A stretch of 64,000 nt of DNA from an uncultured Alphaproteobacteria bacterium (GTDB lineage: Bacteria > Pseudomonadota > Alphaproteobacteria > JALCBB01), in NCBI GenBank assembly GCA_958267355.1, contig OY279575.1, positions 540,335 to 604,334 of the forward strand, given 5' to 3'. This document shows positions 2,212-53,877 of this stretch, one piece after another. The notes under the pieces were generated by a model that was given only the letters and a program-made list of their open reading frames with translations, was not told the origin of the DNA and made no database searches. The first letter of the stretch is position 1; each line of letters begins with the position of its first letter. A program made the translations under genes and the position numbers.

Positions 2212-3558
2212 TCACTTCTCACCAAATTCCTTCCGCAAATACTCAAGACAAGCTTCCCTACCAGCTTCACGCTTGCCTAATAGCCACCAGTCTTCCACCG
2301 CTTGTAATATCTCTCCCACTTGGGGGCTAGGCGAAATTTCTAATTCCCGCATCACATCATCTCCCGTAATATGGAAAGAAATTTTCCCCCTATAATATTC
2401 TGTGAGATCTAGGCTTAGTGCTTTATTGTTTCGATTGTCTCGTGCCGCTGTAATGCATAAACGCGCCCGTACAATTTCTTCATCATATTTTTGACTTGCG
2501 CGCAACAAATCAAGGTTTCGCTTGTCCGCTTCCAGTTTTTCTTCTGATTTCTCAGGTAAGCCAACATTAGTAACCTTACGGGGGAGTAAAGGTTCATTTA
2601 GCACCTTAAATGAATTTAATTCCTTGTGTGTAAGTCTAAGTCTTTCTGCCACTTCTTGTATGACTCCATCCCCTTGAGCTAGGAGAGCAGTTAGGTGCAC
2701 AAGTGCGTCAAAGGGTTCAGCTAGTTTTTGCTTGTTCAGTAGCCACTCAACTTCAATTTCGCTGATACTAGGGTGAATTGCCTCTAACACACCCATGGCT
2801 TTCATAACTCGCAGAATTTCACTGCGTATTTTGTTATCGGAAATAGACAGAATTTTCTGTAACTCCATCCATACCCGTTCGCCTGATAGTCTATCTATCA
2901 AATGGGTTTTTGATTGTATTGCCCGCATGCACCAGCGGTTCGGGTCTATATAGCCCGTTTCACCAACTAGCCCACTAAAGCGAAAGAAACGCAGTATGCG
3001 TAGTGCATCTTCTTCAATCCGTTCTTCACGATTGCCGATGAAGCGAACAACTCTTTCTTCTAAATCCCCTATACCGTGATGAAAGTCATGGATTGTACCC
3101 TGTGAATCGCCATAGAGTGCATTGATGGAAAAATCGCGGCGATTGGAGTCTTCTTGCCAATCTTCGGTGAAATCAACTTCGGCATGTCTTCCGTCTGTTT
3201 TTATATCCCTACGCAGGGAAGTAATTTCAAACTGGCGATAATCACCAGAGCTTTCGCTTCGTGGCAAAACTGCAATCACTGTCCCGTGTTCAAAGCTTCT
3301 GCCCTTACGGATTGTTTTAATTCCTGCTTCGTTTAGCAACTGCTCTACCTTGTCAGGACGCAAAGGAGTCGCAAAGTCTAAGTCTTGGCTTGGGTCACGA
3401 ACTTTATCTGGCGCAAGCAACAGGTCACGCATTGTACCACCGACTATCCGCAGAACTTCTAATTCACTTCCTGCCGCTAAAGCCTGATGCACCTTAACAA
3501 CATCAGGAGTCGCAAAAAGCTGGCGTAAAGTTTCACCTGCCGAGTCGTGATTCAACAT
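2212..3558 (-). CDS. CCA tRNA nucleotidyltransferase / poly(A) polymerase family protein
   Basis: PolyA_pol head-domain motifs GGTMRDLLL...DLDFAT and RRDFSINAL. Start at internal ATG 3558, overlapping the stop of the upstream DUF1285 gene by 1 nt. Confidence 0.8.
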   Translation of the reverse strand: MLNHDSAGETLRQLFATPDVVKVHQALAAGSELEVLRIVGGTMRDLLLAPDKVRDPSQDLDFATPLRPDKVEQLLNEAGIKTIRKGRSFEHGTVIAVLPRSESSGDYRQFEITSLRRDIKTDGRHAEVDFTEDWQEDSNRRDFSINALYGDSQGTIHDFHHGIGDLEERVVRFIGNREERIEEDALRILRFFRFSGLVGETGYIDPNRWCMRAIQSKTHLIDRLSGERVWMELQKILSISDNKIRSEILRVMKAMGVLEAIHPSISEIEVEWLLNKQKLAEPFDALVHLTALLAQGDGVIQEVAERLRLTHKELNSFKVLNEPLLPRKVTNVGLPEKSEEKLEADKRNLDLLRASQKYDEEIVRARLCITAARDNRNNKALSLDLTEYYRGKISFHITGDDVMRELEISPSPQVGEILQAVEDWWLLGKREAGREACLEYLRKEFGEK

Positions 3559-10441: not shown

Positions 10442-11365
10442 CTATCTATCGCGGTTTCTTTTGTGGGCAAGAATGTTCAGCTTTTCTCGGTAGATTGCAA
10501 CAGAGTGATCTTTAAGAAACTTTTTTATCGTTTTTCCTTTTATAAAGATTGCAAGACGCCTTTCCCACGAAACCTTGTAGGTTAACTCTACTTCATCATA
10601 TCGGTTTGGCTTGCAGCTGGTTAAAAATCTTTCGTCTCCGACATGGAAGTAATCTTCAAAGTGGCCGAGATATTTCACAAACTTTCCGACAACAGGAACC
10701 AGCCCTAAGCAAAATTTTATTTTCTGCATCGTCTCCTTGCCAGGAGGTAACATCGTCACGCAATCAATTGCATTGACAACTCTGTAAATCGGCGTCTTGA
10801 TGGCGTACGACCAAGCTTCGTCTCCCACGCGTGGAGCTCCAAAGGTATAGCAAGCGGCAACGCCGCCTTGATGGTTTAATCTTTTTGCGGCGATCGTGGC
10901 TAAAGCTCCGCCTATGCCGTGTCCTGTTATCAATAGGGGCTTGTGGGCAAATGGCTCTTTGTTCAGGCTCGTTTGAATTGCGCTGGCAATTTGTTCGTAG
11001 GCTTCTTTAAAGCCAGCATGCACGCCGCCATTGGTTTCGCAGGAAACTTTGCGAGCGTTTGCTTCTGTTTTTATATCTTTGAAGCGTTTGGCTTTGTGTC
11101 CTTTGAATGCGAGTATTAGTAAGGTGTTGTTTGAAACGAGCAGGGCTTCGGTTCCGTTGGTATCGTATTTTTGTTCTACGGATAGTCCGATCTTTTCGAT
11201 TTCGGCATCTACTTCGTCAAAAGGCATGTAGGCAAGCTCGGACAGGTGCGCCATTAGCCAAGCGATGCGGTCGCTATATCCTTGCCGATAGGTTGGGAGC
11301 TGGTTGCTTTGGATATAATCCACCAGCAGGGCTTTTTTATCTTCGCTACTTGAAGGCTTGCTCAT
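10442..11365 (-). CDS. class-3 (fungal-type) lipase family protein
   Basis: Nucleophile-elbow pentapeptide GHGIG (in ITGHGIGGALA), Lipase_3-like context, AT-rich codon usage. Start at ATG 11365 (MSKPSSSEDKK). Confidence 0.75.
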   Translation of the reverse strand: MSKPSSSEDKKALLVDYIQSNQLPTYRQGYSDRIAWLMAHLSELAYMPFDEVDAEIEKIGLSVEQKYDTNGTEALLVSNNTLLILAFKGHKAKRFKDIKTEANARKVSCETNGGVHAGFKEAYEQIASAIQTSLNKEPFAHKPLLITGHGIGGALATIAAKRLNHQGGVAACYTFGAPRVGDEAWSYAIKTPIYRVVNAIDCVTMLPPGKETMQKIKFCLGLVPVVGKFVKYLGHFEDYFHVGDERFLTSCKPNRYDEVELTYKVSWERRLAIFIKGKTIKKFLKDHSVAIYREKLNILAHKRNRDR

Positions 11366-11461
11366 GGTTCTGACTTCCTTGAGACTTGTTCCGTGCGGAG
11401 TGCATTCTACCACAGCGTGAAGGCGTGGCAGTTGCAGGGGCGAAACGTGTCGGCTGTTCTT

Positions 11462-14260
11462 CTACCTGCGGGTTTTGAAGGGGATATAAAGCCCACCTGC
11501 TACGCCATGGGCGGTTTTGCCTCGCTCAATGGAGCCACAGCTAGAGCTTGCGTAGCAGACTTTGCCTCCTGCGAAGTGGGCGGCATAGCCCGACAGGGTG
11601 AAACGGGTGCCTTGAGCCGTGGAGAAGCCTAAAGCCGCCTGTACACCCCGCTCGGTGCCTGTGAGCGAGCGTAAAAGCGAGCCTGTGCCATGAACCGAAG
11701 CCTGTGTTTGCCAGGCGGTCAGGCTGACTTGCGACACGGGGCGTAGTGTGGCGGTGAAGCGCAGGTTTTCGCTACGGGCGAAGGAAAAGCCTTGGCTTCC
11801 CTGCGAGCCGAAGAAGCCATCGGAAGAAAAGCGTGTGGCGGCGACTTGCCAGCGGATTCCTGCGTGATGACCTGCAATAGCGGCTCCGCTTTCGCCTGTC
11901 TTCTCGGAGACCAAGCCGAGCCGTGTTTTGTCCTGCTTTGTGCCAGTGAGCGGCAGAAAAGCCCGCGCCGAAGGCGGAGTCGGCGCATACGCCACCTGTC
12001 CCTGCGGATTGTAGCCAAAGAAGCGGCTTTCGCCTTCGGGTGCAATTGCCAACTTGCCGTTGCTCTGGGCGGGTAGGGAGAGTCCGCCGAACTGCCGCCC
12101 ATAGAAAGCACTCAAAAAGCGAGTTGCGACTCCGCTTGCCCCCGCAGGAGCTGACCGAGTCGCCTTAGCCACTTCTTTTGCGGTTTCGTCTGCGGCACAC
12201 CACAAATCAAATCGCCCACGGCCTGTGTCTTTGTCTAGCCCGACGGCTCCGATATCCACGGAGCATTTATCAAAGATTGCCATAGCATCGCTGGCGGTGG
12301 CGGAAGCGGGCAGGTGTTCCCAGATCATGGTAAAGGCAGAAATGGCACCGCTAGAAGACGAGAAAGAAGTGCCGCCATGAAATTCGCTATTGTCTTTCGC
12401 GTTCATTAGCTTGTAGCGGTAGGGAAAGCCCACGCACCATTTTTCTACGCCTTCACAGCCGTTTGCCCTGTATCTTCCTCTATGGTCTTCTGTGAGTCCG
12501 TAGATGAATCGCACCCGCTCGCTTGTGTCGGCGATATACTTTTGGTTACGCATACCGCCTTGCATATAGGTATCGTCTTGGTCGGGAGAGTCTAGGTTAC
12601 TATTTCCTGTGCCTACGAAGATATAGGGGCCAGCGGGTTGGTTGGTGTTGGTGTTAAAAATATCTCCGAGCTGAATTCCGTGCTTTGAGAAGATGCGGGC
12701 AGTGGCAATGGAGACAACGCCATCGGTGGGTAACGCATTATAGAGTGGCGGTATGTTGTAGGTTGAAAAATTGCCGACTCTATACCGCCCACTGAGTCCG
12801 TCGTTTGCGTCTTTTGGCAGGAGTCGTTTTGCTAGGTTGGTGACTTGATATCCGTGGGTGGTTTTTGTCGCGGGGTTTGGAATGGGACTGTAATAGAAGT
12901 TTTGCCGAGAGATATCTTCGTGATCATGGAAGCTCACATTCAATCCGCCGTTATCCATAATGAAGATACCGCTACGCTTGGTGCGCTGTGCCTTTGTAAG
13001 CCCGTGGTCGCGGAAGACTTGAGCCAGACAGCTTTCTTCATTGCCGTTTAGGTTTTCGCCGATTTGGCAGGTAACGGTTTTGTATCCTTCGGTTCTTTCT
13101 GCGGCACACCAGAGGTCAAACCGCCCGCGGCCTGTGCTTTCGTCTAATCCTGTTGTGCCGAGATCTACGGCACAGCTATCAAAAATTGACATTGCATCGC
13201 TGGCGGTGGCGGAAGCGGGCAGGTGTTCCCAAATCATCGTAAAGGCGGTAAGGGCTCCGCTTGAGGTGGAGATAGAAGAGCCACCAAAAGTCCTTCCCTT
13301 GACCTTGTACTCATCAGGAAAGCCCACGCACCATTTTTCTACGCCCTTGCATCCGTTGGTTCTGGATCGTGCTGTTTGTGCTTGGTTGAGTCCATAGATG
13401 AAGCGCACCCTGTCGCTTCGCATGGCGACGAGTTCTTGATTGCGTATTCCGACTCCTGAGCGTGTGTAGCCGTTATCTTGGTCAGGAGTCATAACACTGC
13501 CATTATTTCCTGTCGGAGCAAAAATGTAAGGCCCCATAGCTTGTTTTGTGACGCTGTCAAAAACATCGGCGACTCCGATACCGCTTCGTTGGAAAAGCAA
13601 ACCATAGGCAATGGCAACTGCACCATTCGTGGGCAGGTTATTGTAAACCACTCGGAACTGGGCTGAAGATGGCGTAGAAGAAGTTATGTAATGCCCCTTG
13701 AAGCCTTTTGTGGCTGGGCTACGACTATCTTTAGGAAGCAACGCATCGGCAACTGTGGTGACTTGGTGTGCGTGAAGATTTGAAGCTGGATTGCTAACAA
13801 TTTGATCGCTGGTTTGAACATCCGTTTTAACACCAAGGAGCGTTTCCGTGTATGTATTTTGAGTGCCTTGACTTGGGTTTCCGCCATTGTCAACGAGGAA
13901 AATATTGTCGCGCTTGGTGCGTGTGAGTTTTCGCCCTTCGCGGAAAGTGCGCGTGAGGCAACTTTCTGTGCCTGTGTCTAAGTCTTGTCCGTTTTGACAA
14001 GCCAGGACTTGCGCCTGTGTAAGTGCCACAGGCGTGCCCACACCCGTGCCAGGCGTAGGAGGCGTAACCACAGGCGGGTCTTGTGGGTCAGGGTCAGGGT
14101 CTGGGTCTGGGTCAGGCTGGGTAACAGGCGCACCGCCACCACCACCGCCGCCACCGCCACCTCCACCACAGGCAACAAGCGGCACAGTAAGTAGCAAAGA
14201 AAGCAACAAGACAACAAAAACACAGAAACCCCGCACGGAAACAAGCCCCGCCCCACTCAT
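11462..14260 (-). CDS. lipoprotein with two tandem S8 (subtilase)-like domains and autotransporter-like C-terminal region
   Basis: Lipobox LVAC followed by a G12 tract and PDPDPDPDPDPQDP linker. Two ~275-aa tandem repeats each carry D (F[L/I][VM]DNGG), H (HAHQV / HGYQV) and S (GSSISTSSG / GTSFSSSSG) subtilase-like motifs. C-terminal ~250 aa show an alternating beta-strand pattern like an autotransporter beta domain. Confidence 0.6.
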   Translation of the reverse strand: MSGAGLVSVRGFCVFVVLLLSLLLTVPLVACGGGGGGGGGGGGAPVTQPDPDPDPDPDPQDPPVVTPPTPGTGVGTPVALTQAQVLACQNGQDLDTGTESCLTRTFREGRKLTRTKRDNIFLVDNGGNPSQGTQNTYTETLLGVKTDVQTSDQIVSNPASNLHAHQVTTVADALLPKDSRSPATKGFKGHYITSSTPSSAQFRVVYNNLPTNGAVAIAYGLLFQRSGIGVADVFDSVTKQAMGPYIFAPTGNNGSVMTPDQDNGYTRSGVGIRNQELVAMRSDRVRFIYGLNQAQTARSRTNGCKGVEKWCVGFPDEYKVKGRTFGGSSISTSSGALTAFTMIWEHLPASATASDAMSIFDSCAVDLGTTGLDESTGRGRFDLWCAAERTEGYKTVTCQIGENLNGNEESCLAQVFRDHGLTKAQRTKRSGIFIMDNGGLNVSFHDHEDISRQNFYYSPIPNPATKTTHGYQVTNLAKRLLPKDANDGLSGRYRVGNFSTYNIPPLYNALPTDGVVSIATARIFSKHGIQLGDIFNTNTNQPAGPYIFVGTGNSNLDSPDQDDTYMQGGMRNQKYIADTSERVRFIYGLTEDHRGRYRANGCEGVEKWCVGFPYRYKLMNAKDNSEFHGGTSFSSSSGAISAFTMIWEHLPASATASDAMAIFDKCSVDIGAVGLDKDTGRGRFDLWCAADETAKEVAKATRSAPAGASGVATRFLSAFYGRQFGGLSLPAQSNGKLAIAPEGESRFFGYNPQGQVAYAPTPPSARAFLPLTGTKQDKTRLGLVSEKTGESGAAIAGHHAGIRWQVAATRFSSDGFFGSQGSQGFSFARSENLRFTATLRPVSQVSLTAWQTQASVHGTGSLLRSLTGTERGVQAALGFSTAQGTRFTLSGYAAHFAGGKVCYASSSCGSIERGKTAHGVAGGLYIPFKTRR

Positions 14261-14481
14261 CCAGCGATTGCCTTCTAGTTGCACGGATTATCCTCCACCA
14301 CCAACCCAATAATAGCCCATCCTACACCCCCACAGAACAAGCCTGTAATAATCGCAAGCAAACCCAAAGTGGGTTATATTAAGTCCCAGCGGAGGCATTA
14401 GCCAACGTTAATGCGGTGACGCACACCGCCACTTCGTGGTGGCGCACGTCGCCGCTCAGCGGTGGCTGACGCCACCGCTTC

Positions 14482-14567
14482 GCGGTTGTGGCGGAATGGT
14501 AGACGCGCAGCGTTGAGGGCGCTGTGGAGGCAACTCCGTGGAGGTTCAAGTCCTCTCAACCGCACCA
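14482..14567 (+). tRNA. tRNA-Leu (anticodon GAG)
   Basis: Acceptor GCGGTTG/CAACCGC, anticodon loop tTGAGgg, long variable arm, T-arm GGTTCAAGTCC, encoded CCA. Confidence 0.85.
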
Positions 14568-15706
14568 TTGTTACGGCGGCTTGCGCCGCCTTTGGGCGCA
14601 TCTGGCTTGCTATCCGCGTCCTACGGACGCGATACGCAAGACCACCTGCGCCTGTGGGCAGTTCCACCACCCTTGTTCTTCACGGGCGTTTCACGCCCTA
14701 CTTAAACAAACGGGCTTCACAAACTTCATACTTACCGTTCGGCCCGCTGGCTAAAACGCCAGCGGGCACTTTGGCGTGTTGTTACATCCGCTCGCGTTCG
14801 TGCCCTACGGGCACTCGGTGGCTAAAGCCGCCACTTCGTGGTGGGTCTTCATCTCTAAAGTCGGGAAAGGGCAAGCCGCTATTTCCCCGTCTTCGTCTTA
14901 CTGGTGGGTTAAGCCTTTATAGGGCTTCATCTCAAAGTTAATCTGTGCCTTCCCCATCTTTACAGTACCCTGATTTCTAAGCCGCAGAAAAATGGGTAAG
15001 TGTTGGGCTTTCTCGCAACATTTTTTACGCACGCTTGCGCGGGCTTTGGGCGCATCTGGCTTGCTATCCGCGTCCTACGGACGCGATACGCAAGACCACC
15101 TGCGCCTGTGGGCAGTTCCACCACCCTTGTTCTTCACGGGCGTTTCACGCCCTACTTAACTGACGGGCTTCACAAGCTTCACACATACCGTATGTCCCGC
15201 TGGCTAAAACGCCAGCGGGACACTTGGCAGTGCGGCATTCGTGCCAGCCCTTGTTTCCCCCACCAGCTGTTAAGCCCCATAGTTTTAGTGACGGGTTAAT
15301 TGAGCCGATACCCCTTGCGGGGGGAGCGTGAGATTAGGGGGATTAACTGGCTCCCGTTATGGAGATGAAGACGGGAGAAGTAGCGGCTTGCCCCTTTGCG
15401 GGGGGAGCGTGAGATTAGTGGGATTAACTGGCTCCCGTTATGGAGATGAAGACCCACCGAGCACCCGTAGGGTGCGAACGCGAGCGTAGCGGAGTGAAAC
15501 GAGCGGAGCGAAGCGGACACCGCGTAGCGGCGGCTTTAGCCACCGCGAAGCATCTTGCGCGTAGCGCAAGGCTTCGCGGCACTAGGCGGCGTAAGCCGCC
15601 GTAACTTAAACAGTGAGAGAAAGTCCGCCCCTAACCCCTTTTTCTGCGGCTCAGAAATCAGGGTAGTAAGAAGACAGGAGGATAACGGCTTACTCGCGGG
15701 TTAGAT
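14568..15706. repeat. repeat-rich non-coding region (right flank of island), direct and inverted repeat mosaic
   Basis: A ~117-bp perfect direct repeat at 14589-14705 and 15044-15160, extending with mismatches to about 200 bp. Inverted copies of 9953-10441 elements. Palindromic pairs at 14795-14860 versus 15455-15500. Six-frame ORFs here are not protein-like. Confidence 0.8.
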
Positions 15707-16613: not shown

Positions 16614-17930
16614 CTAAGAAATCCGCCGCGAACCCTCGCGCACAAGCTTTTCCAACGCCTCACGCAAGCCAGAAGCAGGAAAACCCTTCAAAATCATATC
16701 CGCTTCAGCCAATAAGCCACTCGCCTCCCCACGAACCATATCACCCACCCCATGCCGCACCAGCAAAGCTTGAGCTAGCTTTAAATTGTCCTTCATAGAC
16801 GCTGTATTGCTCCGTGAAGGCGATTCGTTTGATTCAGGGTGTTGTGGTGCATCTTCGCCACTTTGCTCGCCCACAGCGGCTTTCTGGAAGGCTTTGTGAG
16901 TGGCTTTCTGGATGGCTTTATGGGGGGCTTTGTGAGTGGCTTTCTGGTGGGCTTCGTGAGTGGCTTTATGGGTAGCTTTGTGAGCGGCTTTCTGACCTTC
17001 GCCTGATTGCTCGCCTTCATCGCTTCGCTCACCCCCGCTGGCTCGCCCAATCGCCACAGAATCCGCCAACACAGGGCTATTTCCCTGATTGCTCTCCTCC
17101 ACCAGAACCCGATGCCAAAAAGCCCGCTCAGAATCATCTCCCGCCTGCCACGCAAGCCACACAGGCAAAGTCATCCGCCCATCACGCAAGTCATCGCCCG
17201 CCGCCTTGCCCGTAACCGCACTTCCGCCTTCGTAATCAAGCAAATCATCCACCATCTGGAAGGCAAGCCCAATCGCTTGCCCAAATTCCGCCATCGCCGC
17301 CCGCTTGCTACCCACAGGCGGCTCAGCCAAGTTTTCAGGCTCCACCAAACAAGCCCCCGCTTCACAAGCCGCCGAGAATAAAGCCGCAGTCTTACCCTCC
17401 ATCACGGCAATGATTTCAGCCCGCGTCAGGTCGGTGCGGCGGGTTGTCCGTAGCCCCAGCATCTCACCTTCAGACACAGTAATCGCCGCCCGCGCCAAAA
17501 CCTGCAACGCCGACGGACAGCCAACTTCAACAATCAAACCAAATGCCCGTCCAAGCAAAAAATCACCCGTCAAAACACTCGCCTTGTTGCCCCAGACAAC
17601 ATTGGCGGCAGGCTGTCCGCGGCGGAGCGCACCCAGATCCACCACATCATCGTGCAGTAAAGTCGCAGAGTGCATAAGCTCCACAGCCGCCGCCAGCTTG
17701 TGCGCCTTAGGTAGCTCGTCAGGCGGAGTCCCACACAAGTGCGCCGCCGCACAAGTCAGCAACGGACGTAACCGCTTGCCCTCCGCGTCTAGCAGGTGTC
17801 CCGCAATTTCAGACACCAGCGGCACATGCGAAGCTACCTGCTGGCGCAAAATGTCAGCCACGGCTTCAGTATCAGGGGCAAGCCGCTCGGCAAGTCCTGC
17901 GGTGTTGCGGATTGTTTGCGGGTTCTGCAT
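16614..17930 (-). CDS. ispB: polyprenyl diphosphate synthase (IspB-like) with in-frame repeat insertion
   Basis: First aspartate-rich motif LLHDDVVD, second DDxxD motif FQMVDDLLD, and the substrate-binding Lys-Arg-Leu-Arg motif EGKRLRP. About 90-aa low-complexity insertion (HKATHKATHEAHQKATHKAPHK...) encoded by tandem ~30-bp repeats at 16880-17000. Confidence 0.82.
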   Translation of the reverse strand: MQNPQTIRNTAGLAERLAPDTEAVADILRQQVASHVPLVSEIAGHLLDAEGKRLRPLLTCAAAHLCGTPPDELPKAHKLAAAVELMHSATLLHDDVVDLGALRRGQPAANVVWGNKASVLTGDFLLGRAFGLIVEVGCPSALQVLARAAITVSEGEMLGLRTTRRTDLTRAEIIAVMEGKTAALFSAACEAGACLVEPENLAEPPVGSKRAAMAEFGQAIGLAFQMVDDLLDYEGGSAVTGKAAGDDLRDGRMTLPVWLAWQAGDDSERAFWHRVLVEESNQGNSPVLADSVAIGRASGGERSDEGEQSGEGQKAAHKATHKATHEAHQKATHKAPHKAIQKATHKAFQKAAVGEQSGEDAPQHPESNESPSRSNTASMKDNLKLAQALLVRHGVGDMVRGEASGLLAEADMILKGFPASGLREALEKLVREGSRRIS

Positions 17931-18092: not shown

Positions 18093-19019
18093 GTGGCAGA
18101 AGTCGCCAAGCCAGTAGGCACCTTTCAGGAGATGATCTTCCGCCTAGAGCAATTCTGGGCAGGGCACGGCTGTGTGGTCTTGCGTGGCTACGACAAAGAA
18201 ATGGGGGCAGGGACTTTTCATCCCGCAACTGCGCTTTATGCTTTGGGGCCGTACAATCCGTGGCGTTGTGCTTATGTTCAGCCGTCTCGCCGTCCGACCG
18301 ATGGGCGGTATGGAGAAAATCCGCATCGCCTACAACGCTACTATCAGTTTCAGGTCTTGCTAAAGCCCGCTCCTGAAGACTCGCGAGAGCTTTACGAAGC
18401 AAGCCTAGCGTATCTTGGCTTAGATAAACGCCGCCACGATTTTCAATACGCCGAAGACGATTGGGAGAGTCCAACTCTGGGGGCTACAGGGCTTGGCTGG
18501 GAAGTCCGTTGCGATGGGCTAGAAATCACCCAGTTCACCTACTTTCAAAAGATGGGCGGGATTGAATGTAATCCGCCATCGGTAGAGCTTACCTACGGAC
18601 TAGAGCGTATCGCCAGCATTGTGCAAGAACGCGATAGCGTTTATGACCTAGCGTGGAACAAAGACTTCACCTATGGCGAAGTTCATCACCAAGTGGAAAT
18701 AGACTTCAGCAAGTACAACTTTGAACAGGCTGACCTAGAAGCCTTACGCCACGACTTTGACCAAGCCGAAGCCAGCGTCAAGCAGATGCTAGACAGGTTT
18801 GACTCAGCCGAAGCCGAATTCGCCGAAGTGCTAAGGGGTGAAGCTGTGCTAGCGGCTTACGACAAGTGCCTTGAAGCTTCGCATCTGTTTAATCTTCTTG
18901 ACGCACGGGGCGCGATATCTCCACAGGTAAGGCAGGAGATGATCTTGCGCGTGCGCAAGCTTGTCACGCGGGTTTGCCAAGCCTGGAAGGGTCAAGTAGG
19001 AGCACAAGACAATGGCTGA
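18093..19019 (+). CDS. glyQ: glycine--tRNA ligase alpha subunit
   Basis: [18 protein letters not shown]...[21 protein letters not shown]...YYQFQV, conserved across the protein. Confidence 0.95.
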   Translation: [308 protein letters not shown]

Positions 19020-21186
19020 ACTATTCGTTGAGCTTTATGGAGAAGATTTTCCAGGCTGGGCACAAGAAAAAGGGAGTAGGCAACTTTCTGACCTATTGTA
19101 CGAGGCTCTAAAAAAAAGAAATTTGCTTGATAAAAGAGCAGACTCAATTGGTTATGCATCACCACGCCGATTTGCGGTGCAAGTTGAAGGGGTCTTACCC
19201 GAAAGCAAGGCACAAGAAATTGAAACCCGTGGCCCACGCGAAGGGGCAAACGAAAAAGCACTTGAAGGCTTTTTGCGTAAGGCGGGTTTTTCTTCAACCG
19301 AAGACCAAGGGGTAGAGTTACGCGAAACCCCTAAGGGCAAGTTCTGGTTTGCGACCAAGCTTGTGCCACCAAGTTCTGCTGAAAAAGAAGTACCTGAAGC
19401 GATAGTTGAAACACTTCTTGCAACGCGTTGGCGAAAGTCGATGCGCTGGGATGCAAGTGGATTTCGCTGGCCGCGTCCGTTGCGTCGCTACACAATCTTG
19501 CTTGATGGAAACCCTTTATGTCTTCCCGATTCAGAAAGGCTACCCTCACTTAGGGGGGGCACGAATGAAATAGAAATTGGTGAAGAATATATAGCGGTGT
19601 CTAGCAAAGAAGATTGGCTCAAAATTTTAAAAGCCAAAGGTATTGAACCATATGCTCAAACGAATAAGAGAGGCGTACAGATAGTGACAGAGTCACAGGA
19701 AATGTCCACGCCTCGCTACTCTTCACGCTTCCATATTGAAAGACCATCTCTCCTAGTAATTCACCCTAAAGCAAAAAATTTACCCGAATCTTTTGTCCCA
19801 GTTATCTTAAAATATCATCTTGGTGTGTACGAAAGATCCGAAGGTGGGTATTATTACTCAGCTTCCCTGCCATATGGGCTAGAGGGAGGGGCAGAATCCG
19901 AATGGGAGCAGAAAACTATTAAGCAAGTTGAGAAGGTTGCACAGGCGCGCCTAGACGATGCCCGATTTTACTGGGAGCGGGATAAAAAAATTGGAGTAAA
20001 AGAGCTTCAAAACCGCTTAGACAAAATTAATTTCCACCCAAAACTTGGATCAATTCGTATGCGGGCAGAACGCATAGCCAACTTAGCTAAAGAAATTGCA
20101 GGGCTATTAGGAGAACAGGATGAGAAAGAATTAGAGCATATTCAAAAAGTAACTTTATACTCTCTGTGCGACTTAGCTTCTGGGACTGTGGGTGAAATTC
20201 CTAGTTTAGAGGGGTTTGTTGGTGCCAAGCTTTTTGCAGAAGAAAAAGATTTAGCTCCATATGAAAATTTTCCACTTGCTGCTCACCTAGCGTTAAGTAT
20301 TCGCGAGAGAAAATTTGTCGTACAGGAATTTTCTATTTCTTTGGCCTCGTTATTGGATTATTTGGTTGGCTTTATAGCAGCTGGTGAGCAGTCAACAGGC
20401 TCAACCGATCCATATGCTTTGCGTTCTAAGGGTGAACTTATATGTAGCTATCTAATTCATCCTAATTATAGGCTGACAGATTTGAATTTTGATGAGCTAA
20501 TGCTTAATGTAATGAATATTTATCTTGAAAATGCAGATATAAACACAAAAAATTTACCAAACGATGCTCCCGACTTTAGGGGGGGTAGTCGTAAAATTGA
20601 AGAAGATGTAATCAATTTTTTGAAAGATAGATTGGAGCGTTATCTGCAGTGGGCAGAAAAGATTCCTTATGATGTGACTCGTGCGGTGTTAAATACTTCT
20701 GGAAATGAAGATAGGGCTTACTTTGTATCAATTAAAAACTATGCGGTAAATCTAAGAAATCTTCTTTACTCCTCCGAAGAGGAAGAAAGGCAGAAGGTAG
20801 AAAAATTGCTTGTTGCTTGGCGACGAGCACAAGGATTGCTAAGAGGGGTTGAGCTTAAGTTAAATTCTTCTGATAAAGTGCTATCAGAAGAGGGAGAAAA
20901 ATTTAAAATGGCACTCCAGAATGCGAAACAACGCTTAGATGCTAAGCTTAAACCTTCTTTACGAGTGGAGATATTGGCAGAGCTTAGCGAACCTGTGAGT
21001 GCGTTTTTAGACGCAGAAAAAGTCTTGGAAGGCACAGAGCAGGAGCAACAGGCACGGCTGGCACTTTTAGACCGATTTATACAGGTGGTTAAGCAGGTGG
21101 CAGACTTGGATTATATTGAAGGGGGCGATATAACCGCTCGTAAGGACTTTGCTTATTATAGTAAAGTGTCTAACTCTACTGACTAG
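19012..21186 (+). CDS. glyS: glycine--tRNA ligase beta subunit
   Basis: Overlaps glyQ by 8 nt and has a GlyS-like N-terminus. The middle of the gene (~19500-20950) is markedly AT-rich compared with its surroundings. Confidence 0.85.
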   Translation: MAELFVELYGEDFPGWAQEKGSRQLSDLLYEALKKRNLLDKRADSIGYASPRRFAVQVEGVLPESKAQEIETRGPREGANEKALEGFLRKAGFSSTEDQGVELRETPKGKFWFATKLVPPSSAEKEVPEAIVETLLATRWRKSMRWDASGFRWPRPLRRYTILLDGNPLCLPDSERLPSLRGGTNEIEIGEEYIAVSSKEDWLKILKAKGIEPYAQTNKRGVQIVTESQEMSTPRYSSRFHIERPSLLVIHPKAKNLPESFVPVILKYHLGVYERSEGGYYYSASLPYGLEGGAESEWEQKTIKQVEKVAQARLDDARFYWERDKKIGVKELQNRLDKINFHPKLGSIRMRAERIANLAKEIAGLLGEQDEKELEHIQKVTLYSLCDLASGTVGEIPSLEGFVGAKLFAEEKDLAPYENFPLAAHLALSIRERKFVVQEFSISLASLLDYLVGFIAAGEQSTGSTDPYALRSKGELICSYLIHPNYRLTDLNFDELMLNVMNIYLENADINTKNLPNDAPDFRGGSRKIEEDVINFLKDRLERYLQWAEKIPYDVTRAVLNTSGNEDRAYFVSIKNYAVNLRNLLYSSEEEERQKVEKLLVAWRRAQGLLRGVELKLNSSDKVLSEEGEKFKMALQNAKQRLDAKLKPSLRVEILAELSEPVSAFLDAEKVLEGTEQEQQARLALLDRFIQVVKQVADLDYIEGGDITARKDFAYYSKVSNSTD

Positions 21187-21262
21187 CTCTCCAAACCCTG
21201 ACTTGGTGACTTCCGTGGCAAACCTGACCCAGACTGAAACCCGCGTTGATACGGTGGCAGGT

Positions 21263-23986
21263 ATGCGCTCCATCTATAGCTTCGGTGGCGGTAAAGCCGA
21301 TGGCGGGCGTGACGACAAGGCACTGCTCGGCGGCAAAGGAGCCAACTGTGCCGAAATGGCGCGTATCGGCTTGCCTGTCCCCGCAGGATTTACCATTACC
21401 ACGGCGGTCTGTAATGACTATCTGGCGCGTTTTGCCCAAGCCCCTGAACAGGCACTAGCTGATCCTGCTTCGGCGTTTCCTGATGGCTTAGAACAGGCTA
21501 TTGCCGAGTCGCTTGCTGTCCTAGAAGAACAAGAAGGGCGGAAATTCGGAGACGCCAAAAAACCGCTTTTGGTCTCAGTCCGCTCAGGAGCCCAGGCAAG
21601 TATGCCCGGCATGATGGATACAGTCCTGAACCTAGGGCTCAACCCTGACACAGTGCAGGGCTTGGCAGAGCAAGGTAATCCGCGTTTTGCCTATGACTCG
21701 TGGCGGCGGTTTATTCAGATGTTTTCCGATGTGGTGCTGGGCTTGCCCCACGGCGACTTTGAAGAAATCCTTGAAGAAATCAAAGACGAGCAGAATGTCC
21801 TTGAAGACTCAGAGCTTGACGCAGAAGCCCTACAAACCCTGTGCGACAGATATTTAGAGTTAGTCGCTAAGACAGGTACGCCGTTTCCGCAAGACCCCAT
21901 AGCCCAACTCCACGCCGCCATCGGCGCAGTCTTCCGCTCGTGGAGCAACACTCGAGCCAAAACCTACCGCCGCCTAAATAACATTCCCGACAACTGGGGC
22001 ACAGCTGTTACCGTACAAGCCATGGTCTTCGGCAATCTAGGCAATGATTGTGCGACAGGAGTCGCCTTCACCCGCGACCCTTCCACGGGGGAAAACCTGC
22101 CCTTCGGCGAATACCTAATCAACGCCCAAGGCGAAGATGTCGTGGCAGGAATTCGCACTCCGCGTAGCCTAACCATCGCAGGACGCAAAGCCATCGGCTC
22201 AAACGAACCCGCACTAGAAGAAGCTATGCCAGAAGCTTTCGCCGAGCTGATGCGTATCCGCACACTGCTCGAGCAACACTACAAAGATATGCAAGACCTA
22301 GAGTTCACCATCCAATCAGGGCGACTCTATATGTTGCAGACTCGCTCCGGCAAACGCAGTGTCTCAGCGGCTATTCGTATTGCCGCAGAAATGGCAGGGG
22401 AAGGGCTTATCTCCCAAGACGAAGCCCTAATGCGCGTTGAACCCGAAAGTGTGCGGCAGATTTTGCATCCTACCTTGGCTCCTGACTCGGGCGAAACCGT
22501 AGAGCTAACACGTGGCTTACCTGCATCTCCTGGGGCGGCAAGCGGTATCGTGGTCTTTTCCGCAGCCGAAGCCGAACGACTCGCCCCAGAACGCGCCGTA
22601 ATCTTATGCCGCAGTGAAACCAGCCCCGAAGATATTCAGGGCATGTACGTAGCCCGTGGCATCTTAACCACCCGTGGCGGTATGACAAGCCATGCCGCCG
22701 TAGTCGCTCGCGGAATGGGCAGACCCTGCGTCGTCGGAGCAGGAAGTCTGCATATTGACGAAGAGCAGGGGGTTATGACAGGCGGCGGACAGACCATCCG
22801 TGCCGGAGACGAAATCACCGTTGATGGCACAGGCGGGCGAATTCTACTGGGCGAAGCTAAGATGACCGAGCCAAACCTTGGCGAAGAATTTACCCTGCTT
22901 ATGCAGTGGGCAGACTCCCGTCGCCGTATGAAAGTCCGTGCCAACGCCGAAACCCCCGCCGACTGCAAAACAGCAATCCGCTTCGGGGCAGAAGGAATTG
23001 GTTTATGCCGCACCGAGCATATGTTCTTTCAGAAAGAACGCATGCTGGCAATGCGCGAAGTAATCGTCGCCCAAGACGAAACAGGCAGACGAGCCGCTTT
23101 GGCAAAGTTGCAACCTGTCCAGCGTGAAGACTTCGCTGAAATCTTCCGCATCATGGAAGGCAGACCCGTAACCGTGCGTCTGCTAGACCCACCACTCCAC
23201 GAGTTCCTGCCCCGTGGAGCAGAAGAACAAGCCACTCTCGCCGAAGCCTTAGGCATTTCCGCCAGTGAGTTGCGGGGGCGGGTTTCACGCCTGACCGAGA
23301 GTAATCCAATGCTAGGGCATCGTGGCTGTCGTCTGGCGATGACTTACCCCGAAGTCTATGAAATGCAGCTTCGTGCCTTGTTTGAAGCCGCCCATTTGGT
23401 CGCAGGCGAAGGAGTCGCGGTTTCCGTAGAAGTTATGATTCCGCTCGTCGCCTTTGACCAAGAGTTAGCAAGATTGCGCCAACTCAGCGAAGCCGTCGCA
23501 CAGGAAATCGCCAAACAAAATTCAGCAACAGCAGACAAAGTCCAGTACATCGTTGGCACAATGATTGAATTGCCACGGGCGGCTTTGTGTGCCGATACCT
23601 TAGCCAAACAGGCTGATTTCTTCTCGTTTGGTACCAATGACCTAACGCAAACCGCCTTGGGCTTGTCGCGGGACGATACAGGACCATTTCTGCCGTACTA
23701 TGAGTCCAGTGGTGTGATTCCGCGTGATCCGTTTGCTTCCTTGGATCTTGAAGGGGTAGGGCAGCTGGTCAAACTAGGCGTAGAACGCGGCAGGGCAAGT
23801 CGCCCTGACCTAAAGCTCGGAATCTGTGGCGAACACGGCGGAGACCCTGCATCGGTAGAATTCTTTGACTCCGTGGGCTTGGACTATGTTTCCTGCTCGC
23901 CATTCCGTTTGCCGATAGCTCGTCTGGCGGCGGCACAGGCACAAATCCGTAAAGACCGCAAAGACCGTAAAGACACAGATTCGTAG
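21263..23986 (+). CDS. ppdK: pyruvate, phosphate dikinase
   Basis: GGKGANCAEMARIGLPVPAGFTITT, PEP-utilising His domain (TRGGMTSHAAVVARGMG) and C-terminal TIM-barrel motifs. Start at ATG 21263. Confidence 0.93.
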   Translation: MRSIYSFGGGKADGGRDDKALLGGKGANCAEMARIGLPVPAGFTITTAVCNDYLARFAQAPEQALADPASAFPDGLEQAIAESLAVLEEQEGRKFGDAKKPLLVSVRSGAQASMPGMMDTVLNLGLNPDTVQGLAEQGNPRFAYDSWRRFIQMFSDVVLGLPHGDFEEILEEIKDEQNVLEDSELDAEALQTLCDRYLELVAKTGTPFPQDPIAQLHAAIGAVFRSWSNTRAKTYRRLNNIPDNWGTAVTVQAMVFGNLGNDCATGVAFTRDPSTGENLPFGEYLINAQGEDVVAGIRTPRSLTIAGRKAIGSNEPALEEAMPEAFAELMRIRTLLEQHYKDMQDLEFTIQSGRLYMLQTRSGKRSVSAAIRIAAEMAGEGLISQDEALMRVEPESVRQILHPTLAPDSGETVELTRGLPASPGAASGIVVFSAAEAERLAPERAVILCRSETSPEDIQGMYVARGILTTRGGMTSHAAVVARGMGRPCVVGAGSLHIDEEQGVMTGGGQTIRAGDEITVDGTGGRILLGEAKMTEPNLGEEFTLLMQWADSRRRMKVRANAETPADCKTAIRFGAEGIGLCRTEHMFFQKERMLAMREVIVAQDETGRRAALAKLQPVQREDFAEIFRIMEGRPVTVRLLDPPLHEFLPRGAEEQATLAEALGISASELRGRVSRLTESNPMLGHRGCRLAMTYPEVYEMQLRALFEAAHLVAGEGVAVSVEVMIPLVAFDQELARLRQLSEAVAQEIAKQNSATADKVQYIVGTMIELPRAALCADTLAKQADFFSFGTNDLTQTALGLSRDDTGPFLPYYESSGVIPRDPFASLDLEGVGQLVKLGVERGRASRPDLKLGICGEHGGDPASVEFFDSVGLDYVSCSPFRLPIARLAAAQAQIRKDRKDRKDTDS

Positions 23987-26271: not shown

Positions 26272-26706
26272 TTAGCACCAGCCATCAAAACGCGGCCGAT
26301 GGCTCGGTAAGGAGTGCATAGACTGCTTATTCGGAAGCCATGCATCATAATCGCCTGTGGCTTGCGCTCGCTTGCCTCCTGCTAGGCGGTGGCCTGATGG
26401 CAGGTAGGGAGACAGGGCAACGGGCTGTTGCTCCGCCAGTGCGCCACTAGGCGGGTTCTGGGTCGTATAGTGGAGCCACGCCCGCCACGCAGGAGGCAAA
26501 GTCGGTACATCGCCCCGCCCGAGTCCACCGAACAAGCCTTTGACAAGGCGATACCGTGGCGAGCGGACATAGACCACCCAGCGGTGTTCTTCCATACCTG
26601 CCTTGACCTGTCCGCGATGGGCACGGCGAATCTGCGAGCGATAGTACCTATTGCCCGCGCCATCGCTGCCAACCAGCTCGCCCTTGCGTGCTTTGAGAAG
26701 ATTCAT
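26272..26706 (-). CDS. NDUFA12-family protein (NADH:ubiquinone oxidoreductase 17.2 kDa subunit-like)
   Basis: SDGAGNRYYRS ... WRAWLHYT ... GDYDAWLPN, a pattern typical of bacterial NDUFA12 homologues. Confidence 0.75.
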   Translation of the reverse strand: MNLLKARKGELVGSDGAGNRYYRSQIRRAHRGQVKAGMEEHRWVVYVRSPRYRLVKGLFGGLGRGDVPTLPPAWRAWLHYTTQNPPSGALAEQQPVALSPYLPSGHRLAGGKRAQATGDYDAWLPNKQSMHSLPSHRPRFDGWC

Positions 26707-27130
26707 AGCCAGCAGTATAGCCCATCCACCACAGACCGTAACGATGGGCTTACCGCAGGAGATTACCGCTTGAGAAATCTTCCAGTGGCTTTATGTGGGT
26801 CTTGGTGCAACTTCACAAGTTAGGTTAACCGTGACGATTTCTCCTGATTCCATTTTTCTTGATTTAAATCTACATCAGGGGGCTATCTGCCCTTGCGGGA
26901 CAAAATATAGTGGGTATATTGGAAGCGCGATGCAACTGTTCCTACGGTGAGTCGCCTTGAAGAAAATTCACAGCTAAGGGCTTTACCTGCTTTGCACGGG
27001 TTTTAGGCAGGCGGGTTTAGCAAAAAAGCCCTATTAGCAAGTTCTGCGTGGCAGAGTACCGACTCACCTCTGTGGGTTTGGCAAGCGCAGGGCAGGGCAA
27101 TAATTGTTTTAGAGGAAAAGGAATTGCGTC

Positions 27131-52581: not shown

Positions 52582-53877
52582 ATGGGGCAGGGCAATGCTA
52601 TTGCACACCAAACGGTGTGCCTATGTTTCAGGCAATACGGACTTGCAGTTTTGCTGTTGAGTTTCGTTCCTGTGTTTTTAGCGGGGTGTCAAACCGCGTA
52701 TCTTGGTGAGTCGGTTTTTATTTCTCGTCCGAGTTCTGCGACTTTGCTGGCGATTGCTCTCAGAGAAAAATCTGCGTGGGACGATAATTCTGAAAATCGC
52801 CATAGCAAAAATACGCAAAAACATACTGTCACGAATGGAGTGACTCCTGTTCAGATAGATGAAACCAAACCGCTCACGAAAACCGAAGAAAAATATTTAC
52901 AAAAAATTCTTGACCAAGCTATAACCCCACCACCACCCAAGCCGAATGTTTCGCAGATTCCATCTGAGCCAGTACCAGAACTGCGTGAGCCAGAATTGCG
53001 TGAAAAAGAAGAAGAAACAGTAGGGCAAATCGCACCCCTGTTAGAAAAGCCGATTGACTCCATCGCAATAGATATAAAATCACGCACACAGCCTGACCCC
53101 GAACCTGCAGTCATAGAATTCCGTCCGCCTGAAGTTGAAACCAACACAAGCGAAGTTCAGCTTAATCCCGAGCCCGTATCGGAAAAACTAAAAATGGAAA
53201 CAATACCCAAGCCGCAAACGAACTTTAAACCCATAGATGTGCAGGTAGAAATCCACGAGCCGAAAGTCATAGAAGAAGAATTTACAGCCCAGCAAGTAAG
53301 CGTAAGCTTAAACAAGCCTAGCCCCCAACCCGAACCCGAAGAGCAAGACCCAACAGAAGTGGAGCTAAACAATAGCGTAGTGGTACGCAAAAATATGTTC
53401 GTGCTGGGAGAGCCAGACCCTGACCCTGAAAGAGTAGAAATAGAAATCTACGCACCAAAAATCGTAGAAGAAATATTTACATCACAAAGCATAAGTCTAC
53501 ACCTAGATGAACCTGACCCTGAACGCGATGCACCCGAGACAAGTATATATGAAATCCAGTTTGACAATACAGTCTTCGTAGAAAGCACAGACACAAGTGC
53601 ACCCGATGTGTTAAATGTGCCAAATCCTGACCCTGAAACAGTAGTGGTAGAATTCATACTTACACCCCCTGACCTTGACCTTATAGAAGTCAAAGCAGTG
53701 ATGACAATAGATACTGGCGCACCAAGTCCTAATGACGAAGACCATACAGACGGCGGAGCGGATAGCACCGTAGATGACAGTCCAGAAAGCCTTCACGAAG
53801 TTAGCAAAGACCAGACAGATAAATACGGCTTGGGAGATGCAGAAGACTTATTAAACTCCTTTTTGGGAGGCTTTTAA
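52582..53877 (+). CDS. acidic repeat lipoprotein (unknown function)
   Basis: Lipobox LAGC, very acidic and AT-rich, internal ~40-aa repeats (PDPDPE...IE/VEIYAPKIVEEIFT). Confidence 0.6.
   Translation: MGQGNAIAHQTVCLCFRQYGLAVLLLSFVPVFLAGCQTAYLGESVFISRPSSATLLAIALREKSAWDDNSENRHSKNTQKHTVTNGVTPVQIDETKPLTKTEEKYLQKILDQAITPPPPKPNVSQIPSEPVPELREPELREKEEETVGQIAPLLEKPIDSIAIDIKSRTQPDPEPAVIEFRPPEVETNTSEVQLNPEPVSEKLKMETIPKPQTNFKPIDVQVEIHEPKVIEEEFTAQQVSVSLNKPSPQPEPEEQDPTEVELNNSVVVRKNMFVLGEPDPDPERVEIEIYAPKIVEEIFTSQSISLHLDEPDPERDAPETSIYEIQFDNTVFVESTDTSAPDVLNVPNPDPETVVVEFILTPPDLDLIEVKAVMTIDTGAPSPNDEDHTDGGADSTVDDSPESLHEVSKDQTDKYGLGDAEDLLNSFLGGF

Follow-up and report, generated by a model that had tools for sequence, protein, structure and literature searches.

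How does the gene of a housekeeping enzyme come to carry the most AT-rich stretch of its surroundings? This question is raised by glyS (positions 19012-21186, + strand), which encodes the 724-aa beta (tRNA-binding) subunit of an alpha2beta2 glycyl-tRNA synthetase (GlyRS) on a 64,000-nt stretch of contig OY279575.1 from an uncultured alphaproteobacterium; this whole 64-kb stretch is called the window below. A first reading of the letters, made without database searches (hereafter the sequence-only reading), proposed that the central part of glyS had been replaced through homologous recombination with a low-GC donor, or else that constraint on the HD and anticodon-binding domains had been relaxed. 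The analyses described here favor a different answer, to which we give a probability of about 0.6: glyS would be a pool of old, deeply diverged, functional alleles that spans at least two species, is shuffled by recombination, and is kept by diversifying selection.

Composition of glyS and divergence of its alleles

GC content was compared across all 1451-bp windows of the 64 kb, and those not overlapping glyS served as the background. Positions 19500-20950, the central ~1.4 kb that had been called strongly AT-rich, have a GC content of 0.399 (z = -5.6 against a background mean of 0.533, standard deviation 0.024 and minimum 0.449), and the lowest-GC 1451-bp window of the whole 64 kb (0.398) starts at 19501; the GC content of the full window is 0.53. 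The AT run quoted in the sequence-only reading is located at 19621. Silent sites are also shifted toward AT, so amino-acid content alone does not account for the low GC: four-fold degenerate sites have a GC content (GC4) of 0.31 for glyS codons 157-650, compared with 0.54 in glyQ (18093-19019, + strand; the alpha, or catalytic, subunit) and 0.59 in ppdK (21215-23986, + strand; the gene downstream of glyS), and GC at third codon positions (GC3) is 0.34 for the whole of glyS, compared with 0.45-0.61 in most other genes of the window. The Lys/Asn/Ile-rich codon choice was confirmed as well, the shares in GlyS being 7.6% Lys (2.7-3.6% in GlyQ and PpdK), 4.9% Asn (2.3%) and 5.7% Ile (2.6-4.6%). The host-like composition described for the ends of the gene held only in part. 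Among the N-terminal ~160 codons, codons ~54-156 agree with the description (GC 0.52, GC4 0.46), but the first ~53 codons are AT-rich (GC 0.415); at the other end, where the last ~80 codons had been named, the last ~75 codons have a GC of 0.46-0.49 and a GC3 still below that of the neighbors. The GC and GC3 profiling suggested at the time thus places the GC minimum inside glyS, with ends that are less AT-rich in GC, while GC3 lies under the neighbor level along the entire gene.

The comparison set consisted of seven related contigs, the window included, of one ENA metagenome assembly (ERZ19433661); a protein search found the window's own GlyS on a 1.86-Mb contig of this assembly as well. The flanking genes define two species, namely species 1 (the window, L003, L006 and L007) and species 2 (L004, L005 and L045). 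The flanks of species 1 are 98-100% identical at the nucleotide level, with a synonymous divergence (dS) of 0.014-0.05 in the genes for IspB and MscS; those of species 2 are 97-99% identical among themselves and 82-88% identical to species 1 (dS ~0.8). A distinct glyS allele was found in every one of the seven genomes. The encoded proteins are 51-59% identical between pairs, apart from 75% for the mosaic pair formed by the window and L003, and the nucleotide identity at 20040-20960 is 52-64% in all allele pairs. The C-terminal module of the gene (HD plus anticodon-binding domain) is unique in each genome (4/4 in species 1, 3/3 in species 2). Synonymous divergence in glyS is saturated at 1.1-1.6, nonsynonymous divergence (dN) is 0.33-0.40 in pairs other than window-L003, and their ratio (omega) is 0.2-0.35, compared with 0.04-0.1 in glyQ and ppdK. 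GlyS is also the fastest-evolving protein of the locus when the two species are compared. In the protein search, the six further GlyS proteins from ERZ19433661 were 75, 57, 53, 48, 49 and 56% identical to that of the window; the next matches after this allele set were at 36% (a metagenome-assembled genome (MAG) labelled Alphaproteobacteria) and then at ~29%.

Synonymous diversity falls with distance from glyS, from 1.1-1.6 in the gene itself to 0.31-0.37 in glyQ within species (omega ~0.1) and to the 0.014-0.05 of the IspB and MscS genes, and glyQ hitch-hikes with glyS. The full-quality glyS alleles are all intact. They form one clade that is not sorted by species, and the sister of this clade is a MAG lineage of 59% GC, represented by the protein P0008. 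The same, identical P0008 protein occurs on 10 contigs, which indicates that the hypervariability is specific to the genus of the window. The genus is absent from the GTDB species representatives: GlyQ matched nothing there but unrelated proteobacteria, at 47-59% identity.

These alleles bear directly on the proposed donor. If the central ~1.4 kb of glyS had been replaced once by a homologue from a distant low-GC organism, the lowest GC of the window would be expected just where it lies, between ends of more normal GC, and recombination junctions do exist at this locus (see below). All seven alleles of both species are equally AT-rich, though (GC 0.42-0.46, with flanks at 0.53-0.56), the glyQ and ppdK pieces imported along with them have normal GC, and the nearest GlyS outside the genus, P0008, is 36-39% identical to the alleles and comes from the 59% GC genome. 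Separate trees of the N-terminal and the central/C-terminal segments, as proposed in the sequence-only reading, both place the window inside the same genus-specific clade and disclose no outside donor. Neither the allele alignment, used as a profile against 5.8 billion clustered proteins, nor an exhaustive HMMER search of 1.84 billion representative proteins brought up a relative closer than P0008, a further allele or a donor candidate. Such a single replacement is already largely refuted by the equally AT-rich alleles and the genus-specific clade, and we regard it as highly improbable. GC content instead follows inter-allele identity, with a rank correlation (rho, 90-bp windows) of 0.63 over 17-24 kb and of 0.70 inside glyS. 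Because low GC is found in the variable parts of every allele, and at silent sites, it arose in place and characterises the variable glyS parts of the genus rather than any donor genome. AT-biased mutation may build up where the alleles are too diverged for recombination to homogenise or GC-correct them and where protein constraint is weak.

Fold, modules and recombination

The identity of the operon is clear from its genes. GlyQ matches PF02091 (E 1e-122) and scores above the cut-off of NF006827; the end of glyQ overlaps the start of glyS by 8 bp, and the glyQ-glyS order is identical at all seven related loci. GlyS matches PF02092 with 236 bits (cut-off 29.2) and the DALR_1 domain with 27.8 bits (cut-off 22.3). 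Its score against the TIGR00211 equivalog model, 277 bits, lies under the curated cut-off of 300; since the Pfam domains, the operon order, the predicted fold and the functionally tested residues place the protein in the family, this score marks a divergent GlyS member and not a different family. GlyS also matches the E. coli GlyS structure 7yse_C (E 1e-29, aligned over residues 48-702). An AlphaFold2 model built from a 36-sequence alignment had a mean local confidence (pLDDT) of 89 and a predicted template-modelling score (pTM) of 0.78, and the top 13 PDB matches of this model in Foldseek were all GlyRS beta subunits or fused GlyRS (E 1e-29 to 1e-15), the top GlyRS beta matches having template-modelling (TM) scores of 0.66-0.74. 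The domain limits of E. coli GlyS, B1 (1-65 and 125-215), B2 (66-124), B3 (216-340), HD (341-540) as well as the anticodon-binding domain (ABD; 541 to the end) (PMC8464048), were transferred to the window's GlyS through the 7yse_C alignment, and the model predicts the five-domain fold B1-B2-B3-HD-ABD along its full length. E. coli residues R326, W150 and R159 have been functionally tested and shown to matter (PMC8464048); the corresponding R313, W146 and R155 show no or almost no variation in the 36 sequences, all alleles included, and the equivalent of E. coli R149 is R145. Judging from the predicted full-length fold and these key residues, GlyS appears to have retained its function. In its operon with overlapping stop and start codons, its predicted fold and these residues, the system resembles the bacterial heterotetrameric GlyRS of E. 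coli (7EIV, 7YSE); it differs from ordinary GlyS in being only ~29% identical to alphaproteobacterial GlyS and in its low TIGR00211 score. Scans for tRNAs, Rfam families, promoters and terminators returned nothing relevant inside or adjoining glyS.

Along the gene (+ strand throughout), conserved and variable segments alternate. The first, B1a (19012-19170, codons 1-53), is AT-rich (GC 0.415) and moderately variable, and its allele type is common to L003 (96%). It is followed by a conserved block (19171-19479, codons 54-156; GC 0.52, GC4 0.46) that comprises B2 and the tRNA-acceptor loops of B1, and then by hypervariable B1b and B3 (19480-19926), where the window is 97% identical to L003 and 57-58% identical to the other alleles. 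The conserved motif VEKVAQARLDDARFYWERDKK...FHPKLGSIR (19927-20070) lies at the B3/HD boundary, contains R313 (E. coli R326) and is a recurrent crossover site. The hypervariable C-terminal module, HD plus ABD (20071-20960), is the AT-richest part of the gene (GC 0.38-0.39, local minimum 0.353), and the conserved C-terminal helices, the last ~50 residues (20961-21147), are 92% identical among the alleles at the amino-acid level, with a GC of 0.49. The mean amino-acid identity of the seven alleles is accordingly 66% in B1a, 93% in B2, 54% in B1b, 60% in B3, 46% in HD, 41% in ABD and 92% in the C-terminal helices; the AT-rich portion of glyS corresponds to the rest of B1, then B3, HD and ABD. At the very end, a window-specific, AT-rich replacement of 57 bp (21148-21204) stands in the alignment for 19 bp of all six other alleles. 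It gives GlyS a new 12-residue tail, FAYYSKVSNSTD, instead of SARLNQG (pLDDT <50, predicted disordered), and widens the gap before ppdK, the glyS stop now lying 28 nt upstream of the ppdK start.

When the window is compared with L003, L006 and L007, mismatches are sparse up to ~18167, dense from 18206, and sparse again past 21643-21673. The resulting island of divergence (18170-21670, 3.5 kb) is the only multi-kb coding stretch that differs strongly from same-species genomes, and its edges, at ~18170 in glyQ and ~21670 in ppdK, are recombination junctions. Between these edges the species structure is gone. The nucleotide identity of glyQ is 88-97% in all pairs; between species it reaches 92-97%, above the genome average of 82-88%, and within species glyQ is more diverged than normal. 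The 5' patch of the window's ppdK (21237-21670, + strand) has only 4 differences from L004 of the sister species (99% identity) but matches the window's own species at 88%.

The window and L003 share 96-97% sequence identity in glyS between 19012 and ~20040-20070, except in the older conserved block, and 64% thereafter; L005 and L045 are likewise 98-99% identical and then 59% identical. The sequence-only reading had called for recombination detection, and the maximum chi-square method placed breakpoints at 20070 for window-L003 (chi-square 264) and at 20058, in window coordinates, for L005-L045, with 0 of 1000 permutations as extreme in either case. Because two independent pairs break at the motif of the B3/HD boundary, the N-terminal (B1-B2-B3) and C-terminal (HD plus ABD) modules reassort there, at ~20060; five N-terminal and seven C-terminal module types are seen in the seven genomes, and they are combined independently. 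Together with the island edges and the sister-like ppdK patch, the breakpoint at 20070 bears out the proposal that glyS is mosaic through homologous recombination.

The other early proposal, relaxed constraint on the HD and anticodon-binding domains, captures part of what was found. Residues of the HD cavity (numbering from PMC8464048: E. coli K364, R367, K394, D456, K457 and D459) were read by hand from the allele and 7yse_C alignments. The equivalents of R367 and D459 are invariant, K364 is replaced by R or H, three alleles have L at K394 and the others K, and D456 and K457 are replaced throughout the lineage; several cavity residues that other GlyRS conserve, those at the K394, D456 and K457 positions, are thus not conserved here. 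These losses, the omega above that of the neighbors, the TIGR00211 score below its cut-off and the low GC of other fast-evolving genes would all fit HD and anticodon-binding domains that are nearly dispensable and drift toward AT. Relaxed constraint is insufficient alone, however, because it cannot raise synonymous divergence within species 30-100-fold over the flanks, from 0.014-0.05 to above 1; the open reading frames (ORFs) are intact, the predicted fold is retained and the key residues are invariant, and the P0008 sister lineage is not hypervariable. As a full explanation, relaxed constraint is therefore unlikely.

Localised hypermutation, by error-prone or targeted mutagenesis, would produce divergence that is extreme and sharply local and could leave AT-rich silent sites, as seen here. 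The recently shared blocks argue otherwise: their dS is 0.02 (window-L003, codons 157-343) and 0.029 (L005-L045, codons 1-320), which is the background level, and the local mutation rate is thus not raised. Many indels separate the alleles, and the divergence continues into glyQ and ppdK, where its edges are sharp and look like those of recombination. To look for a template repeat or silent cassette, blastn and tblastn were run with every allele on the 64-kb window, the part of the genome that this search covered; glyS alone was matched, and no second copy of any glyS segment is present in these 64 kb. We consider hypermutation very unlikely.

An artefact of assembly, in which strain mixtures were mis-joined or reads mis-phased, deserves mention because the contigs all derive from a single HiFi metagenome, for which two assemblers were used, and because L045 suggests local consensus errors. 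In this 128-kb contig (10001-12170 and 12176-14948), glyS is split into ORFs of 441 and 287 aa and ppdK into ORFs of 715 and 215 aa; here consensus frameshifts, arising from low coverage of the contig, are a likelier cause than two pseudogenes. In the six other alleles, by contrast, the ORF (707-735 aa) is intact; their contigs measure 0.18-1.9 Mb, and four are labelled circular. Both assemblers recovered the same alleles, and each allele has its own consistent mosaic. The 3.5-kb island is also shorter than typical HiFi reads, as is generally known of the technology. That the alleles are artefacts is hardly credible.

Controls and a second hotspot in cca

About 55 kb of the window could be compared with at least one same-species genome. 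These control regions are 96-100% identical within species and, short intergenic patches aside, contain one other coding hotspot, cca (2212-3558, - strand; GC 0.455), which encodes the CCA-adding enzyme and is a weaker hotspot of within-species divergence and mosaicism. Eight cca alleles with 57-90% amino-acid identity were found, all in ENA metagenome assemblies, and those that were traced share the sample of the window. Relative to the same-species locus L043, cca is a patchy mosaic of 77-100% nucleotide identity; the alleles of the species 2 genomes L004 and L005 are 64% identical, and mosaic exchange between species is visible. The catalytic head is conserved, and the variable part is the C-terminal tRNA-binding body/tail. 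GlyS domains have been noted to resemble the body/tail of the CCA-adding enzyme in structure (PMC8464048). It is suggestive, on the strength of two genes, that both hotspots encode enzymes that hold the tRNA acceptor end. The distance between cca and glyS is 16 kb in the window and ~65 kb in the L007 genome.

Two broader rules were considered and rejected. Low-GC genes are not hypervariable as a class, as a lipase gene (10442-11413) and a gene of unknown function (52582-53877) are low in GC yet 95-100% identical within species. Nor are aminoacyl-tRNA synthetases and tRNA enzymes as a class, as in the sister loci the genes for AspRS and RNase D mostly show 98-100% identity, apart from a few short local dips.

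Several other variable segments were recorded in and around the window. An ORF of 940 aa without a Pfam match (11462-14284, - strand; 940-1010 aa among strains) is 96-100% identical within species and essentially unalignable (~30-45% nucleotide identity) with the sister species. Synteny breaks within species at ~15500, adjoining tRNA-Leu (14482-14567): the lipase gene and the unknown gene of 940-1010 aa lie upstream of gcrA in the window and L006, and aspS-rnd-recJ-glpX in L003 and L007. A 159-aa ORF (14462-14941, + strand) overlaps this tRNA-Leu(GAG) and is probably spurious. The IspB-like polyprenyl diphosphate synthase (16614-17930, - strand) contains a low-complexity His/Lys/Ala/Thr insertion (HKATHKAT...), especially at 16813-17000, and measures 426-442 aa among strains and 377-387 aa in the sister species. 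An intergenic patch at 26680-27100, upstream of a 1361-aa ORF, is a small variable segment that is 36-50% identical to L003 and L006 and 99% identical to L007. At ~52290, between ndk and an unknown 431-aa gene, two strains (L046, 10930-11800; L052, 4568-5440) carry an insertion of ~1 kb with two small ORFs of 141 and 117 aa that have no Pfam match. A giant gene starts at ~61200, near the end of the window (L048, 19851 onward); it is called at 10,316 aa in this genome and at 8,750-9,666 aa in sister strains, and a fragment in L050 shows weak IAT_beta and Calx-beta matches.

Proposed selection on the allele pool and parallels to known loci

In the reading that we favor, one of deep coalescence, old glyS alleles would persist and cross species while the rest of the genome stays uniform, and diversifying, probably negative frequency-dependent, selection would keep the pool. 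The agent would act on tRNA-binding enzymes; phage factors, toxins and inhibitors are candidates. Its main competitor is neutral serial introgression, in which glyS evolves fast in every congener and the alleles of unsampled species are imported repeatedly, with no selection for diversity. Interspecies recombination tracts are indeed clear, constraint is weakest in the variable domains, GlyS is the fastest protein of the locus between species, and the signal of positive selection is not robust. Diversifying selection is inferred nonetheless because no two of the seven genomes are alike: imports under neutrality are expected to be rare and to leave a common native allele in each species, but the C-terminal module is unique in all four genomes of species 1 and all three of species 2. 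Recombination should moreover be hindered, not favored, at the most diverged locus. Finally, other genes that are fast between species, namely the lipase gene, the 940-aa ORF and the unknown gene at 52582-53877, are 96-100% identical within species. Purely neutral introgression is therefore rather unlikely.

It should be noted that several points weigh against diversifying selection on a glyS allele pool. The signal of site-wise positive selection is not robust, the older comparisons being saturated and the alleles seven in number. In the more recent comparisons, omega is about 1.7 in one recent block, on 17 changes (14.5 nonsynonymous to 2.5 synonymous; P = 0.008 against 0.3, not different from 1), and 0.27, on 12 changes, in the other recently shared block. 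GlyS proteins in general, moreover, conserve these same variable domains least, and deep neutral divergence together with introgression could give a similar picture. The sample is small, all genomes coming from the one metagenome assembly, and the account of the low GC, AT-biased mutation in the absence of GC-biased conversion, is one that we infer.

A more specific version of selection was drawn from the two hotspots together. GlyRS beta and the CCA-adding enzyme, whose variable parts (HD plus ABD, and body/tail) include tRNA-binding modules of related structure (PMC8464048), may be targets in an arms race with a phage-encoded protein, some polymorphic toxin or an inhibitor of natural origin. 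Negative frequency-dependent selection would then keep trans-species pools of both, in the way known from surface antigens and restriction specificity subunits; we put this forward tentatively, as a possibility that is more likely wrong than right. The Mom protein of phage Mu uses Gly-tRNA-Gly as a co-substrate, and Gly-tRNA can thus matter in phage-host conflict, although this example is silent on GlyS (PMC13219725). Under an arms race, it is proposed that the antagonist would bind both enzymes or exploit Gly-tRNA.

The pool of glyS alleles has parallels among loci of other kinds. The O-antigen (rfb) cluster of E. coli, with gnd, is a hypervariable low-GC locus under frequency-dependent selection with hitch-hiking flanks. 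Like it, glyS has deeply diverged alleles in near-identical genomes, GC below that of the genome, alleles that cross species and raised flank diversity that decays with distance, here in glyQ and the 5' end of ppdK. The product of glyS, however, is a cytoplasmic, single-copy and presumably essential translation enzyme and not a surface structure, and only allele sequence changes at glyS, not gene content. In the type I restriction gene hsdS, two variable target-recognition domains are reshuffled at a conserved central region, much as two variable glyS modules, in five N-terminal and seven C-terminal types, flank a conserved motif with recurrent crossovers; protein family and function are unrelated to GlyS, and the GlyS modules have no known specificity readout. 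The pbp2x and pbp2b genes of S. pneumoniae and penA of Neisseria are essential drug targets made mosaic by interspecies recombination, with alleles that are ~5-25% different and directional selection by one drug. They share with glyS the sister-species blocks in an essential gene and the junctions in or beside it; at glyS, in contrast, the allele differs in every genome, the divergence is saturated and there is no known inhibitor.

Aminoacyl-tRNA synthetases count as core genes that evolve slowly, and they serve as phylogenetic and species-delimitation markers. For a housekeeping gene it is unusual that the encoded GlyRS subunit differs by 40-60% among co-occurring strains of one species and passes from species to species; to our knowledge, allele divergence of this degree within species has not been described for any GlyS, and a literature search on hypervariable glyS or synthetase polymorphism retrieved no precedent for it in glyS or any other synthetase gene. 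Alleles of this kind would mislead marker-based taxonomy as well as pangenome clustering, in which they would be split into different "genes", and they illustrate that low GC and mosaicism need not mean foreign origin. The HD domain of GlyS has no known function and has been discussed in terms of "cryptic prokaryote functions" (PMC8464048). The seven C-terminal and five N-terminal modules, carried on a near-constant GlyQ, form a natural series in which to ask what has to be conserved in the HD and anticodon-binding domains, and the finding as a whole suggests that the half of bacterial GlyRS which binds tRNA is under a selective pressure that has gone unrecognised.

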